From the NCBI GenBank assembly GCA_963835065.1, contig CAWIEK010000046.1:64001-128000 (forward strand): a stretch of DNA of 64,000 nt. Reading direction: 5' to 3'. Under the pieces are notes generated by a model. The model was not told where the DNA came from and searched no databases. It saw nothing but the letters and a program-made list of their open reading frames with translations. Numbering within the stretch: the first letter of the stretch is position 1; every line of letters begins with the position of its first letter. This document shows positions 5,031 to 9,903 of this stretch, piece by piece. Source of the stretch: an uncultured Chthonomonadaceae bacterium (lineage in GTDB: Bacteria; Armatimonadota; Chthonomonadetes; Chthonomonadales; Chthonomonadaceae). The position numbers were made by a program, and so were the translations under genes.

Positions 5031-5074
5031 GGTTGTCGTTTAACAGCAAAACGTCCTGAGAGAGCGCCAGGAAA

Positions 5075-5452
5075 AAGAAATATGTAGAGTCATCGTCGAA
5101 ATCTTGGCAATACAGCGCTTTCAGCCCGATGTCTCGTTGTGTCTGGTTGTAGGAGAGAGGCATCATGGCCTCAGCAGCGTCAGGGCGAACGGGGAGAGTG
5201 ACCAGGCATTGTCTCACACCTCCTTTCCGGGTGAGTTGATAGTTGATAGGAACTTCGACTTTCAACGGCCCGCCACCTGGCTGATTAGTAGATATATGTC
5301 TGTATTAGACGGGCGGATGGGGCGGTAGTTTCGTTTTTTTTGCTTTTTTGATCTTTTTTTCTGGTTTCTTGGATTGTTGCTGTTGGGAGAACGATAGGCC
5401 GGGGCTTTGCAATCCCCGGTCGGAAAGCGCAAGCGTCCTGCGGACGCGGATT
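5075..5452 (-). repeat. Dispersed non-coding element with REP-like end; inverted copy at about 43677-43965
   Basis: About 5080-5187 is the near-identical reverse complement of about 43843-43955; GGCCGGGGCTTTGCAATCCCCGGTC...GCGTCCTGCGGACGCGGA at 5397-5450 matches the reverse complement of 43677-43730. Confidence 0.8.
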
Positions 5453-5474: not shown

Positions 5475-6362
5475 TTATAATGCAAGAAGCGCCTGCGTTT
5501 TGGGATTGTCACTAAACGGTTCGTGTTCGGGCAGGTTGAAGTTGGCGATTAGAACTTCACGATTGAGGACGCGCGTGTTGCCGTTCTTTTCCGTGTTCAT
5601 GCCGGACGCCGATTGAACAGCGATTGTAAAGGCGTTTGGGAACAAAGCATGGATTTGGGGCGTGTCGTAGGAGGAATATATCCATTGGCAGGTGGAACGT
5701 CGCAGCCGTGCCGCCAGTTCCTCATGCTCCTCCCATGTTCGCATGTTGTGCTTGTAGTTGCAGCCGTTTTCCGGGTAGGGAGGGTCAACGTACAGGACGG
5801 TTCCGGCGCGGTCATAACGATCAAGGCACTGCCGCCAATCCAGACATTCGATAATAACGGAGCGTAAACGGTTATGCACAGGTTTCAAGCGTTCCTGAAG
5901 CGTCTTCAGTGCGCCGATGAGACGATTGCCGCCGCCACCATCCGTAATACTGGTTTGAAAGCGGGGGTAGTCCAGTTCGCCGCCCCATCCCGCCATGATT
6001 AGGTAGTAAAAACGATGGGCGCGTTGTACTTCATCAAGTTGTATTGGATCAAGACCGGCAAGGCGCTGAAACTCGGCGCGGGCGACAAGTTCCCATTCAA
6101 AGGATTGAAGCAATTTTTCGGGACAGTGTTTTACGATGCGAAAAAAGTTGATGAGTTCCTGGTCAACATCATTGAGGACTTCTACAGGACTCGGCGGCTT
6201 GCCGAACAACACCCACGCGCCCCCGGCAAACGGCTCTACGTAGCAGGTATGCGGAGGAAGCAGGGGAATGATCTGTTTTCGCAAGCGTGATTTGCCGCCG
6301 ACCCATCGAATGGGACTGTTGATGGTTTTGTACTCGGTGGAAGGGGCGTTTTTGGCTGCCAT
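5475..6362 (-). CDS. DNA adenine methyltransferase (D12/Dam-like class), orphan
   Basis: WVGGKS, YVEPFAGG (motif I) and DPPY (motif IV); no adjacent endonuclease. Confidence 0.9.
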   Translation of the reverse strand: MAAKNAPSTEYKTINSPIRWVGGKSRLRKQIIPLLPPHTCYVEPFAGGAWVLFGKPPSPVEVLNDVDQELINFFRIVKHCPEKLLQSFEWELVARAEFQRLAGLDPIQLDEVQRAHRFYYLIMAGWGGELDYPRFQTSITDGGGGNRLIGALKTLQERLKPVHNRLRSVIIECLDWRQCLDRYDRAGTVLYVDPPYPENGCNYKHNMRTWEEHEELAARLRRSTCQWIYSSYDTPQIHALFPNAFTIAVQSASGMNTEKNGNTRVLNREVLIANFNLPEHEPFSDNPKTQALLAL

Positions 6363-6470
6363 GCAAATCCTCTTCTTGAGATATTCTGCTGATAATTGAT
6401 TTTAACACAGTATTCTTAACAAAGTTACAGTCTACTTTCCCGACAAATGGCAAGCCGCATGTGAGAATAC

Positions 6471-6512
6471 GATTTCACCGAGGTAAAAAGTTCTGGGTAT
6501 GTATGACGGGAA
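6471..6512 (+). repeat. Cassette-boundary site A (right half only)
   Basis: GATTTCACC-GA-GGTAAAAAGTTCTGGGTATGTATGACGGGAA aligns without gaps to sites B-D; outer left arm absent. Confidence 0.75.
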
Positions 6513-6543
6513 TCGTTCCGGTTAGTAGAAGGGAGGTGCAGGG

Positions 6544-6996
6544 ATGGAGCCATTTGGAGACGAAATACTTGCAGCACAATTCAAAGACTTCTGTGGTGAG
6601 AAACGCTTTCGTAAATTTTTGGATGAACTGAATACAACATGTCGTGAGAAAGGACGGTTGCTTTTCTGGCAGCAAGACCTTTGGGACGCTTTTGTACTTA
6701 CGCACAACGAGTACGCCTGTATCTCCTTTGAATACCTTGCGGCTCCGATAGTTTCCTGTCCCGTTCATGGCTGCTTCTTCCAACCAGATCGTGTTCCCAT
6801 TTGTTACGGCCTAATAAGATTTACACCGGGCTATTGGGAAACAAGAAACACATATTTCCCATACGCGAATACCCTCATTCTAGGCGGTTGCGAAGTAGAT
6901 GAGCAGAGCGAAGGGGACGTAATGTATTGTCCCGAATGTCGCCGCGCCGAGCAGATATGGGAGCAAGAGCGAATTGCCTCAAGGGGGCCGAAGTAG
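6544..6996 (+). CDS. Hypothetical Cys-rich, probably Zn-binding protein (cassette 1)
   Basis: GGAGG RBS; CPVH, ICYGL, LGGC and YCPEC motifs. Confidence 0.7.
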   Translation: MEPFGDEILAAQFKDFCGEKRFRKFLDELNTTCREKGRLLFWQQDLWDAFVLTHNEYACISFEYLAAPIVSCPVHGCFFQPDRVPICYGLIRFTPGYWETRNTYFPYANTLILGGCEVDEQSEGDVMYCPECRRAEQIWEQERIASRGPK

Positions 6997-7003
6997 GGAA
7001 ACC

Positions 7004-7084
7004 ATGCAGAGATGTGAGGAATCCTTTATACCCGGAACTGATGATTTTACTGACGTGAAATGCCACAGGTATGTGTGACAGGGA
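7004..7084 (+). repeat. Cassette-boundary site B (full)
   Basis: ATGCAGAGATGTGAGGAATCCTTT-ATACCCGGAACTGATGATTTTACT-GA-CGTGAAATGCCACAGGTAT-GTGTGACAGGGA. Confidence 0.85.
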
Positions 7085-7119
7085 GTGTTCTGTGATGCTT
7101 TGCAGAAGGCTGATGGTAA

Positions 7120-7551
7120 ATGGAGAGTATTGGCACTAGCCAGTGTCTCCACAGGACAACCAATATGAAGCCTATTAACCTGATGCTGCCAAAACATCGC
7201 CGCCCAACCATTCATAAACTCATGCAGGGATTGAAGCGCGTCGCCAATGCTGTTTGGCTCGTCATCGTCGTGATTGTTGCAGGCCCTATGTTATTCCCCT
7301 TCTGGTTGCTGGACGAGGTGAAAACGAAACTCACACAATGCCGAAATTGTAGTCGCATAGGAGGCTTACGAAAATACGATCCTGAAAAGTATGGAGCCAC
7401 ATATTATCTTTGTATGCGTTGCAAGACTCGTTATCTGAACTATCGCGGTACATGGCAGGATGCTTCGGCTCCTGAATACGATGATAAATTCGGTAAGCAT
7501 CGGAATGTGCGCCCCCTACTTCGCGCCGAAAAAGACCAGAAGAGAGCCTGA
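7120..7551 (+). CDS. Hypothetical membrane-anchored zinc-ribbon protein (cassette 2); true start may be downstream
   Basis: TM segment followed by CRNC...CMRC; stop codon overlaps start of site C. Confidence 0.6.
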   Translation: MESIGTSQCLHRTTNMKPINLMLPKHRRPTIHKLMQGLKRVANAVWLVIVVIVAGPMLFPFWLLDEVKTKLTQCRNCSRIGGLRKYDPEKYGATYYLCMRCKTRYLNYRGTWQDASAPEYDDKFGKHRNVRPLLRAEKDQKRA

Positions 7552-7630
7552 TGCAGACATTCGAGGAAAATACATACCCGGAACTTTGCCTTTTCAGGAC
7601 GGTAAATATCACAAGTATATTTGACAGGGA
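7551..7630 (+). repeat. Cassette-boundary site C (full)
   Basis: ATGCAGACATTCGAGGAAAATAC-ATACCCGGAACTTTGCCTTTTCAG-GA-CGGTAAATATCACAAGTAT-ATTTGACAGGGA. Confidence 0.85.
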
Positions 7631-7681
7631 GTGCTTCGAGCCGCTTGCAGGATTCGGGCGGATTATGGCGAATGGGGAAAT

Positions 7682-8539
7682 ATGAAACGTCGTCTGCTAT
7701 TTGTGTCCGTGTTGGTTGTCGCTCTTCTGGTGAGTGGCTGCGGCCTGTCGGTGTGGCAGGCGAAGCGGCAGTATACGCTTAACCGGCAGTTGGTCGCGGC
7801 TCTGCTGAATAACGACAACAAACAGGCAATCGCTCTTGTCAACGCAGGAGCCGACCCGAACACACCCTATGCCACGCCGCCTGCGCCTTCCTTCAAACGG
7901 TTGCTGAATCAGCTGCTGCATCGTTCGTCTCCCCCTCCCCATAACGATCTCTGGGCGTTTTTATTTGTCTGTGGAGAAGGATGGGAACTAGACAATGGCG
8001 TCTTTGCGGATCACCGCACGGAAGATGTATACTTGGTTCAATCCATGCTGGAATATGGCGCGGATTGCAAGGGCGTAGATTCGGAAAATCATTCGGCTCT
8101 ATCTTGGGCCGCTTTACGCAGTCGTATCCATCTCACGCAACTACTGTTGGAACACGGTGCGAACGTCAATCAACAGGATACTTCTGGCAACACTCCCCTG
8201 ATGTATGCAGTTCGACACTTTGATGTAAACATGACACGCCTTCTGCTGGAGCATGGTGCGGATGTTTCCCTCAAAAATAAGTGGGAAGTCACAGCCTTAT
8301 ATGATGTCGTAAGTGAGTGTAGGCACCCCCACAACCACCACAACACAGATATTCTTCATCTTCTGCTGGCACATGGAGCCAACCCAAACCAACCTAGTGT
8401 AGACAACGGGACTCCCCTATGGCTTGCACAAAGTCGAGGAGAGGCCGATATTGTTACTCTGCTGCAAAAAGGCGCAAAACAGCACAAAGGCAGAAGCGGC
8501 AGGAGCAGGAGAGCGCAGGATGGAGCCGATGATGGGTAA
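7682..8539 (+). CDS. Ankyrin repeat protein with N-terminal signal/TM segment (cassette 3)
   Basis: LLLEHGANVN, GNTPLMYA, LLLEHGADV and LLLAHGANPN repeats. Confidence 0.9.
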   Translation: MKRRLLFVSVLVVALLVSGCGLSVWQAKRQYTLNRQLVAALLNNDNKQAIALVNAGADPNTPYATPPAPSFKRLLNQLLHRSSPPPHNDLWAFLFVCGEGWELDNGVFADHRTEDVYLVQSMLEYGADCKGVDSENHSALSWAALRSRIHLTQLLLEHGANVNQQDTSGNTPLMYAVRHFDVNMTRLLLEHGADVSLKNKWEVTALYDVVSECRHPHNHHNTDILHLLLAHGANPNQPSVDNGTPLWLAQSRGEADIVTLLQKGAKQHKGRSGRSRRAQDGADDG

Positions 8540-8596
8540 GCGGATTGTGAGTAGGGGCACATATGTGAACAGGCAGGTACAGGGACAATAAGGCAG

Positions 8597-9256
8597 GTGT
8601 CAATTTCCATGATTACTCCACAAGAATTTGCTCTTCGCTGGCAAGATACGCAGATTGACACTCAAATTGCCCGTTTAGTGGCAGAAAACGCCGATTACAA
8701 CTATGCTGACAACGTGTGGGGTTGTTCACCGCTCGTTCGCTATGAACTCAATGTAGTGAATAATCTGCCACTTTCAGAAGAAGCCAAACACTTCCTTTGC
8801 GAAGCCGGACTGCCTAGCCAGATATTCGATTGGCGTCTTGATCATCTACCTGGAAACCTTCCGCCGCTGCCAAATGCGATGGAGGGATATTATTTTCCAG
8901 AGGGTTATTCCCGTTATCGTGTGCTGGGAGCGGCATTTTGGAAAGAGTTGGAGATATGTTTCGGGTTTCTCTGCCTCGATCTGGAAGCAGACGGTCGTGT
9001 TGTGGCTATCTGGTCAGGATTTGAGGAGGCTCAGTTTCTAAATTCCAGCATTGCTCAGTTTGCCGAGTACGTTTTGCTGTTCCGCGACTTCAATGAATGG
9101 TGTTCCATTCATCATCCCTATCCTCTTTCGGAGCCAGAGGACACAGGTATAAATCAGCATATTGAACAAGTGCTTGAGCAACTCAAGCTCGTTGACCCAC
9201 ATGTGCATGACTACGACTGGTTAAACCAGCCTTGGTCTGTACAAGTGCCTCCATAG
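8597..9256 (+). CDS. SUKH-4-like immunity protein (cassette 3)
   Basis: LSEEAKHFLCEAGLP...LCLDLEADGRVV...FLNSSIAQF pattern. Confidence 0.7.
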   Translation: MSISMITPQEFALRWQDTQIDTQIARLVAENADYNYADNVWGCSPLVRYELNVVNNLPLSEEAKHFLCEAGLPSQIFDWRLDHLPGNLPPLPNAMEGYYFPEGYSRYRVLGAAFWKELEICFGFLCLDLEADGRVVAIWSGFEEAQFLNSSIAQFAEYVLLFRDFNEWCSIHHPYPLSEPEDTGINQHIEQVLEQLKLVDPHVHDYDWLNQPWSVQVPP

Positions 9257-9318
9257 CCTCTCCGCTCCCTGCCTCCACTAGCCTGGTACGTCCCGCAGGA
9301 GGGCCGGAATAGGGAAGG

Positions 9319-9399
9319 GTGCAGACATTTGAGGAAAAATATATACCCGTTAGTGAGGATTCCACCGATGTGAAAGGCCATAGGCATATCTGGCAGGAA
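9319..9399 (+). repeat. Cassette-boundary site D (full)
   Basis: GTGCAGACATTTGAGGAAAAATAT-ATACCCGTTAGTGAGGATTCCACC-GA-TGTGAAAGGCCATAGGCAT-ATCTGGCAGGAA. Confidence 0.85.
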
Positions 9400-9420
9400 C
9401 ATTGGAGGGACTTGTGAAAG

Positions 9421-9720
9421 ATGACGCGGAAATCCAAAAATCCAGAGTCGAATGACGCACAGGCCGAAATAGTAGAGGGTGAAATTGCAGAGATAAAGGT
9501 GAATGGTCACTATACTGTTCGGCTTGACGATGGCATGGTGTTATCGTGCCATCTGTCACGATGGTACTATGGTCGAGATGCAGACTTCACGTTTGTGCGA
9601 TTACAGGTTGGCACTCGCGTCAAGGTCAAGGTACTACCTCATAAGGCTGGTTGGGGGCGAATTATGCCTCCGCAATGGCAGAAGCGCGCAAAGACAATAG
9701 AACCAGATGCAAATACTTGA
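9421..9720 (+). CDS. Divergent IF-1-like (S1/OB-fold) protein (cassette 4)
   Basis: IVEGEIAE..NGHYTVRLDDG..LSCHLS...RLQVGTRVKV...GRI follows the IF-1 pattern; stop lies inside site E. Confidence 0.7.
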   Translation: MTRKSKNPESNDAQAEIVEGEIAEIKVNGHYTVRLDDGMVLSCHLSRWYYGRDADFTFVRLQVGTRVKVKVLPHKAGWGRIMPPQWQKRAKTIEPDANT

Positions 9721-9757
9721 AGAAAGTTTTATACCTGCAACTGAGGATTTTACAGAC
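9707..9757 (+). repeat. Cassette-boundary site E (left half; right half diverged)
   Basis: ATGCAAATACTTGAAGAAAGTTTT-ATACCTGCAACTGAGGATTTTACA-GA-C then departs from consensus. Confidence 0.8.
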
Positions 9758-9903
9758 TACTACACTGCGGTGTAAATATGCAGGTAGTTCTTTTGTCCGT
9801 AGGATAATTGGCCGCAGGCTTACCAACCGGCAAAGAATTTAGATGGTATATGCCGGGGCAACGCGGCAGTATCTTGATAAAGCAGATAAGGCTGAAGACG
9901 AAA

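Follow-up and report, generated by a model that had tools for sequence, protein, structure and literature searches.

Accretion of cassettes without a recombinase of their own, at the attachment site of a large serine recombinase (LSR), is known already from SCC elements and from Dehalococcoides. In the SCC/SCCmec composites at rlmH, which depend on CcrAB or CcrC, degenerate inverted half-sites surround a central GA, and the tandem cassettes, ccr-less ones included, are separated by internal att sites (available excerpts of PMC13739063). The ssrA islands of Dehalococcoides (DsiB) are also tandem and have a short target-gene copy as their boundary; their array begins at the target gene itself, which is intact, and an integrase is present in most of them, while 15 islands without an integration module have been read as cis-mobilizable elements gained by accretion (PMC3146451, in its available parts). 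Mg-chelatase/comM genes are the commonest class of LSR target, accounting for 12.4% of the predicted site-specific LSRs in the accessible text of PMC10083194. The accessible sections of PMC3783163 place the zinc-ribbon motif of LI integrase at positions 16-24 in attP and 11-19 in attB, describe hybrids of the two as autoinhibited in canonical integrases, with attR x attR preferring an antiparallel alignment, and state that CcrA/B also recombine like sites.

The window, i.e. the whole stretch of 64,000 nucleotides analysed here, comes from the genome of an uncultured Chthonomonadaceae bacterium (G000) and contains, at 6456-9756, five copies of a repeat, A to E. The copies are 64-71% alike, have a GA dinucleotide at 6480 (A), 7052 (B), 7598 (C), 9367 (D) and 9755 (E), and delimit four same-strand modules of 572, 546, 1769 and 388 bp. 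On balance, the repeat appears to be the attachment site of an as yet unfound LSR, with attB at an Asp codon of comM, which made joints of the form P-GA-B' and so stacked recombinase-less cassettes. The region is made up of the following features.

5475..6362, minus strand: D12-class adenine methyltransferase of a restriction-modification module (PF02086, E=1.6e-22), the left anchor of the variable slot
6404..6479, plus strand: left arm (type X) of site A, the remnant of a C-protein/restriction-endonuclease fusion gene, of which it retains the last ~22 codons
6468..6503, plus strand: site A, with a comM-like inner arm, GA at 6480-6481 and a short arm to 6500
6544..6996, plus strand: cargo of cassette 1 (A to B, 572 bp), a 150-aa protein with no Pfam family and 3 homologues
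7004..7027, plus strand: conserved extension to the left of the long arm of site B, seen in alignments also at C, D, E and the copies of the congener G002
7028..7072, plus strand: site B, with a P-like long arm at 7028-7051, GA at 7052-7053 and a B'-like short arm at 7054-7072
7120..7551, plus strand: cargo of cassette 2 (B to C, 546 bp), a small protein that has a hydrophobic stretch and faint hints of a zinc ribbon (Pfam matches only at E 0.03 or worse)
7574..7618, plus strand: site C, GA at 7598-7599
7631..8539, plus strand: cargo of cassette 3, an ankyrin-repeat protein (PF12796, E=1.7e-22) with paralogues, from a family expanded in the genus
8597..9256, plus strand: cargo of cassette 3 (C to D, 1769 bp), a SUKH-4 immunity protein (PF14435, E=1.3e-14)
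9343..9387, plus strand: site D, GA at 9367-9368
9421..9720, plus strand: cargo of cassette 4 (D to E, 388 bp), a small OB-fold (IF-1-like) protein (PF01176, E=6e-4, below the family cut-off)
9731..9756, plus strand: site E, long arm and GA only, the right end of the array
9757..9856, plus strand: dispersed REP/MITE-like repeat abutting the GA of E (48 BLAST matches in G000, 37 for its core)

The array is flanked by the methyltransferase gene and an SDR gene. The methyltransferase has a 95.5% copy on contig C53 of the same genome and an orthologue at the same place in G002. Arm X matches the end of the full fusion gene on C53 at 76% and is kept in G002; its peptide is the shared C-terminal end of the restriction-gene homologues, i.e. 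native coding sequence at this place, and it has no ATACC outer motif. The comM-like core of site B occupies 7040-7075, and an Rfam search with the repeat gave no match. A 154-nt contig of a soil sequencing run, a sample that may or may not be independent of the source genome, spans site B with one difference; no rearranged joints were seen in that run, which covers a small share of the window and has two contigs on the array.

By analogy, the array would function like the SCC composites and the ssrA islands, and is a member of neither. It shares with SCC, as the excerpts describe it, the central GA, the inverted half-sites and the internal sites between tandem recombinase-less cassettes. Unlike SCC, it is not integrated at rlmH and its core resembles comM instead, no TATCATAA motif is found in the site sequences, the cassettes are 0.39-1.8 kb long, the array lies away from the presumed target gene, and no ccr-type gene is linked to it. 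The accretion pattern is like that of the Dehalococcoides islands in the available account, but here a remnant of a restriction gene serves as the anchor, there is no comM, and the modules consist of single genes. The target gene class is that of the comM-targeting LSRs in the accessible text of PMC10083194, and LSRs occur beside split comM genes in relatives of G000, yet none of the splits seen is at the GA of Asp-197. Finally, the attL/attR layout, with the outer motif of one arm at 16-24 and that of the opposite arm at 11-19, is that of the LI/A118, phiC31 and Bxb1 integrases as given in the sections of PMC3783163; unlike the sites of canonical phage serine integrases, all full copies here are the same hybrid in direct repeat. 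What is new, then, is that the cassettes are the size of genes, that the core mimics comM at a position which our searches did not turn up, and that the anchor is not at comM. In the literature searched, which lay mostly outside subscription journals, we found no description of a serine-recombinase cassette array or of this comM site.

The geometry of the site is regular. It had been noted from the window that ATACC starts 24 nt left of the GA in B to E and that its inverted partner ends 19 nt right of it in A to D, and both spacings are borne out exactly: ATACC in all four long arms (B, C, D, E; A has CGCAT at this position), and GGTAT, GGTAT, AGTAT and GGCAT in the short arms of A, B, C and D, respectively (E has TGTAA). 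The inner repeat TTTYAC..GTRAAA, described as symmetric about the GA, was slightly overstated: the symmetry is exact in A and B, D has one mismatch, C is weak, and E is one-sided. The GA is not the sole invariant pair: TT at -7/-6 and AA at +7/+8 do not vary either, and they are mirror images about the GA.

We compared seven long arms with five short arms, both read outward from the centre. Identity at positions 1-9 peaks at offset 0 (0.50), and at positions 11-19 it peaks at offset +5 (0.64, with 0.41 for the next best offset). Column shuffles with the geometry fixed beforehand gave p=0.001 for the inner and p=0.00045 for the outer positions; with any window and offset permitted, p was 0.015-0.03, and 0.04-0.06 when site A was left out. 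The inner inverted repeat about a 2-bp centre (p=0.001) is what is expected of an LSR attachment site, and an attL/attR-type hybrid is expected to have its shared outer motif at 16-24 in one arm but at 11-19 in the second, as seen here; this 24/19 layout coincides with the zinc-ribbon positions of LI integrase in the excerpted PMC3783163. The right arm of site A is the inverted left arm of site C at 17 of 18 bases, with an offset of 5, and this 18-mer has just one other match with two mismatches or fewer in the 8-Mb genome. Of the earlier interpretation, which is supported in part overall, the geometry of a P-like/B-like LSR hybrid is supported: it fits the LI positions as available from that source, no 6-8-bp overlap is shared, and the short arm resembles comM, a leading LSR target.

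The likeness to comM is confined to the core. Between -12 and +23 the repeat resembles the segment of comM/yifB that codes for D-F-x-D-V-K-G-H, and the GA coincides with the first two bases of the Asp codon. Read in the comM frame, the site gives D-F-T-D/E-V-K-x-H-x-Y/H-V; the right arm of site D, D-V-K-G-H-x-H-I, is closest to comM. Identity between sites and comM is 0.52-0.65 at -12..+23, 0.35 at +24..+35 and 0.20-0.21 elsewhere, values that are biased upward by the use of eight comM genes of which six were model-selected. One arm thus matches comM, as expected of an element of a comM-targeting LSR; the long arm beyond -12 is not comM, and bears instead the inverted outer motif of the short arm at the attP position.

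Searches with models of the repeat led to comM as well. Model R1 matched the comM/yifB gene of G002, and two of its four weak matches in other genomes were also comM. Model R2 gave 13 matches outside G000 and G002 in 68 genomes, of which five, the best three included, fall on the D-F-x-D-V-K-G-H motif of comM in three genera. A PWM of the core from -12 to +23, trained on 11 site copies only, scored five comM genes at 36.9, 32.7, 20.4, 19.0 and 6.2 bits. The best non-training match among 16.0 million positions of G000 was 16.4 bits, so that four of the five comM genes lie above it, with the proviso that three of the five had been found through the model, and that one of the two unselected genes passes. 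The comM gene is present in 378 of 401 genomes of the phylum (293 of 300 near-complete ones) and was not found in G000, where it is missing mid-contig from the position syntenic to G001 (G000:C63 near 90000); it is lost from this genome.

Twelve copies of the repeat are known overall: the five in the window, two elsewhere in G000, and five in G002. Copy F, at G000:C53:419340, came from a half-site scan, and a decayed copy, F0, about 1 kb upstream of it, from BLAST; both lie after the 3' end of a C-protein/restriction-endonuclease fusion gene, beside the 95.5% methyltransferase copy, and it is the end of this same gene whose remnant makes up the left arm of site A. At G000:C53:417356-419400, the N-terminal ~30 residues of the fusion gene are replaced by the decayed F0, and the fusion reading frame begins in the left arm of F0 and passes through its GA. 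G002 has an array of three copies (G2a-c), a single long arm (G2d), and one copy at the orthologous slot (G2e). At that slot, the flanking genes, the methyltransferase and arm X are kept, and the cargo is different: two unrelated genes, with no further site. The cassette 1 gene has a homologue at a different place in G002, without sites and between two dispersed repeats, which counts against a tight link of cargo and site.

Among 101 genomes searched with R1, true copies occur only in G000 and G002, with none in G001; a full-site pattern found, in 401 genomes, G000 itself and a single match with one mismatch in G196. A pattern search of 61 genomes, driven mainly by the outer short arm, gave one outside match, and a metagenome scan with the short arm gave two; all three were judged to be due to chance. 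A scan of a genome collection with the long arm produced five stretches, four of which belong to one Nitrospirota repeat with no further likeness to ours, the fifth being the known G2b. Viral scans for the site returned 0, 0, 74 (11 of them comM, none split at the site) and 1 chance match, and a plasmid search nothing usable.

The prediction of fixed 24/19 spacing and a conserved GA held for part of the additional copies. All seven G000 copies have GA at the centre; the readable G002 copies have GA in two of four cases and AA in the other two (G2b and G2e), one congener copy having 24/18 spacing along with AA. G2a and G2b are each short of one base in the right arm, and these missing bases may, as a guess, be assembly errors, since ordinary genes of G002 have frameshifts too. 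There are two types of left arm, gene-end X and long, and two or more types of right arm, among them A-type and B/C/F-type. All four combinations are present, in A, G2b, F and B/C, which points to exchange within the core that the copies share, somewhere from about -12 to +8 and no finer. In E and G2d, homology is lost within 1-4 nt after the GA. We keep the GA as the centre because it is the axis of symmetry of the invariant TT and AA, because it puts both outer motifs on known positions, and because E and G2d end just after it.

These observations suggest the following scheme, in which the natural attB would be the Asp codon of the D-F-x-D-V-K-G-H motif of comM. The putative LSR would cut at the GA. 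Each cassette would have a P-type arm at its right end and a copy of the B' arm at its left, so that the joint of the circle would be P-GA-B', the same as the internal joints of the array. Insertion at an anchor that mimics attB, such as the restriction-gene end in a genome devoid of comM, would restore an acceptable site, and repeated use of this entry site would push older cassettes to the right, resulting in head-to-tail accretion. The enzyme would act in trans or would have been lost, and the repeat copies may be decaying. The relaxed directionality that had been suggested for such an array of hybrids has a precedent in the Ccr enzymes of SCC. A relaxed, Ccr-like enzyme has to be assumed only for copies that still recombine with one another, because hybrid sites of canonical integrases are autoinhibited; it is just as possible that the array is a stack of end products left as a fossil, for which no such enzyme is needed now, and the 64-71% likeness of the copies does not decide between turnover and stack. 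The stronger version, an integron-like platform under a Ccr-like LSR, in which single-gene circles made of P arm, GA and comM mimic are freely excised and re-stacked by hybrid x hybrid recombination in a genome without comM, from an undescribed attB at the comM Asp codon, seems doubtful to us.

The origin of the site in comM could be granted and the crossover placed elsewhere, at the AA of the Lys codon (+6/+7), with the core being a whole attB copy and the 24/19 layout incidental. In its favour is genome G109, where comM is split in D-F-S-E-V-K-G-Q at the Lys codon AA, 6 bp right of the GA, the two parts being at the end of G109:C94 and the start of G109:C397, short contigs with no recombinase. 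Both arms of the G109 element carry, in inverted orientation, one 11-bp motif at positions 6-16 from the AA, and this split marks the comM motif segment as a recombination target. Moreover, the comM-like stretch from -12 to +23 is centred near +5.5, site A and its orthologue in G002 agree to about +8, and the base at +2 tracks the type of the left arm about as well as that of the right arm (equal parsimony). However, centred on the AA the outer motifs would lie at 30 and 13 bp and form no dyad, it is the GA about which the invariant TT and AA are symmetric, homology in E and G2d ends before +6, and the G109 arms are unlike the long arm of the repeat, so we regard a crossover at AA as quite unlikely. 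(A 13/15 match by eye of arm X to a G109 element arm was set aside, as X is conserved coding sequence there.) Unlikely, too, is that the repeats are inert relics, a comM fragment or a short frame copied along with neighbouring leaders by homologous or illegitimate recombination. The genus does line up small genes on one strand in long arrays that lack such sites, and one array of this kind, at G002:C4 (36000-55000), has genes with leaders in common and just one long arm of the site; G000 is without comM, an orphan comM fragment spanning the D-F-x-D-V-K-G-H motif exists in genome G010, the copies are only 64-71% alike, and one frame gives a similar peptide of 24-30 residues in most of them. But codon periodicity of the repeat is not significant (p=0.21, 0.10, 0.10) and is accounted for by the comM core, which led us to reject a protein-coding origin of the whole repeat; no full-length gene starting with that peptide was found in G000 or in the loci examined, among the matches listed; and a decayed fragment would explain neither why the outer motif recurs inverted at the attP position nor why the comM likeness stops at half-site length.

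The single-gene, same-strand cassettes look integron-like, and G000 has six tyrosine-recombinase matches, which might suggest that a tyrosine recombinase of the integron integrase, Xer or phage type moves them. This is very improbable: no 6-8-nt block is common to more than 14% of site pairs, whereas an identical 6-8-bp overlap is expected of Xer/pdif or phage tyrosine sites. The hallmarks of integrons are also missing, with no attC core motif (RYYYAAC or GTTRRRY) within 80 nt of any of the five sites, no bottom-strand hairpin in six of six folds (z +0.3 to +1.5), and no integron integrase over the TIGR02249 cut-off in three genomes of the genus.

The serine recombinase required by the preferred scheme, with the exchange at the GA of the comM Asp codon, was sought directly. 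G000, which is 92% complete, has two full LSRs, both on other contigs, near contig starts and without the motif nearby. The check proposed originally was for an LSR elsewhere in the genome with this motif at its flanks; neither G000 nor the LSR loci of its relatives yielded one, none of 14 loci having an LSR adjoining the motif. In ~229 kb of LSR-containing loci, the sole match to the core was comM itself. One of the two G000 enzymes (L001, G000:C60:209-2008) overlaps with its 3' end the 3' end of an SDR gene on the opposite strand, and its att site is likely within that gene.

Several split comM genes of relatives have an adjoining LSR gene. The splits fall near residues 199, 215-230, 250, 308 and 355, and none at the GA of Asp-197. 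No comM split at the GA was found in 45 hand-picked candidate genomes, among the matches listed, or in 31 genomes of one class and 11 comM-bearing viral loci; among 29 phage records with a comM match beginning at the D-F motif, the eight examined comprise five whole genes and three split elsewhere. Neither a P' arm nor an attP or attL form was seen, and four spellings of the comM motif are absent from eight supplementary files of PMC10083194, a part of that source. In G002, an island of ~100 kb with two LSR genes sits in comM, split near residue 308 (G002:C2:157300-258300).

If the proposed reading is true, the array displays in nature the structural rule by which LSR half-sites are shifted by 5 bp relative to each other. 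It would also predict a new LSR specificity, both arms of which can already be defined from the 12 copies. An LSR that recombined identical hybrids in direct repeat would test the coiled-coil model of autoinhibition, and would represent a second route, beside integrons, to the stacking of gene-sized cassettes.

Further gene and repeat families were noticed in the two genomes. The small-gene array on G002:C4 contains a gene family with constant N- and C-termini and variable middles, along with ankyrin genes and long palindromic spacers, and has paralogues on many contigs of G000; inside cassette 3, at 8499-8583 and 9283-9312 of the window, lie what is left of a start and an end of this constant-termini family. 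Two more dispersed repeat families with many copies in G000 are located at 5068-5360 and 5394-5450. The REP/MITE-like family closes both arrays: in the window it begins right after the GA of E, and in G002 (G002:C1 near 1143300) it cuts the long arm of G2c near -12 to -17. The same family is found on both sides of the cassette 1 homologue of G002.
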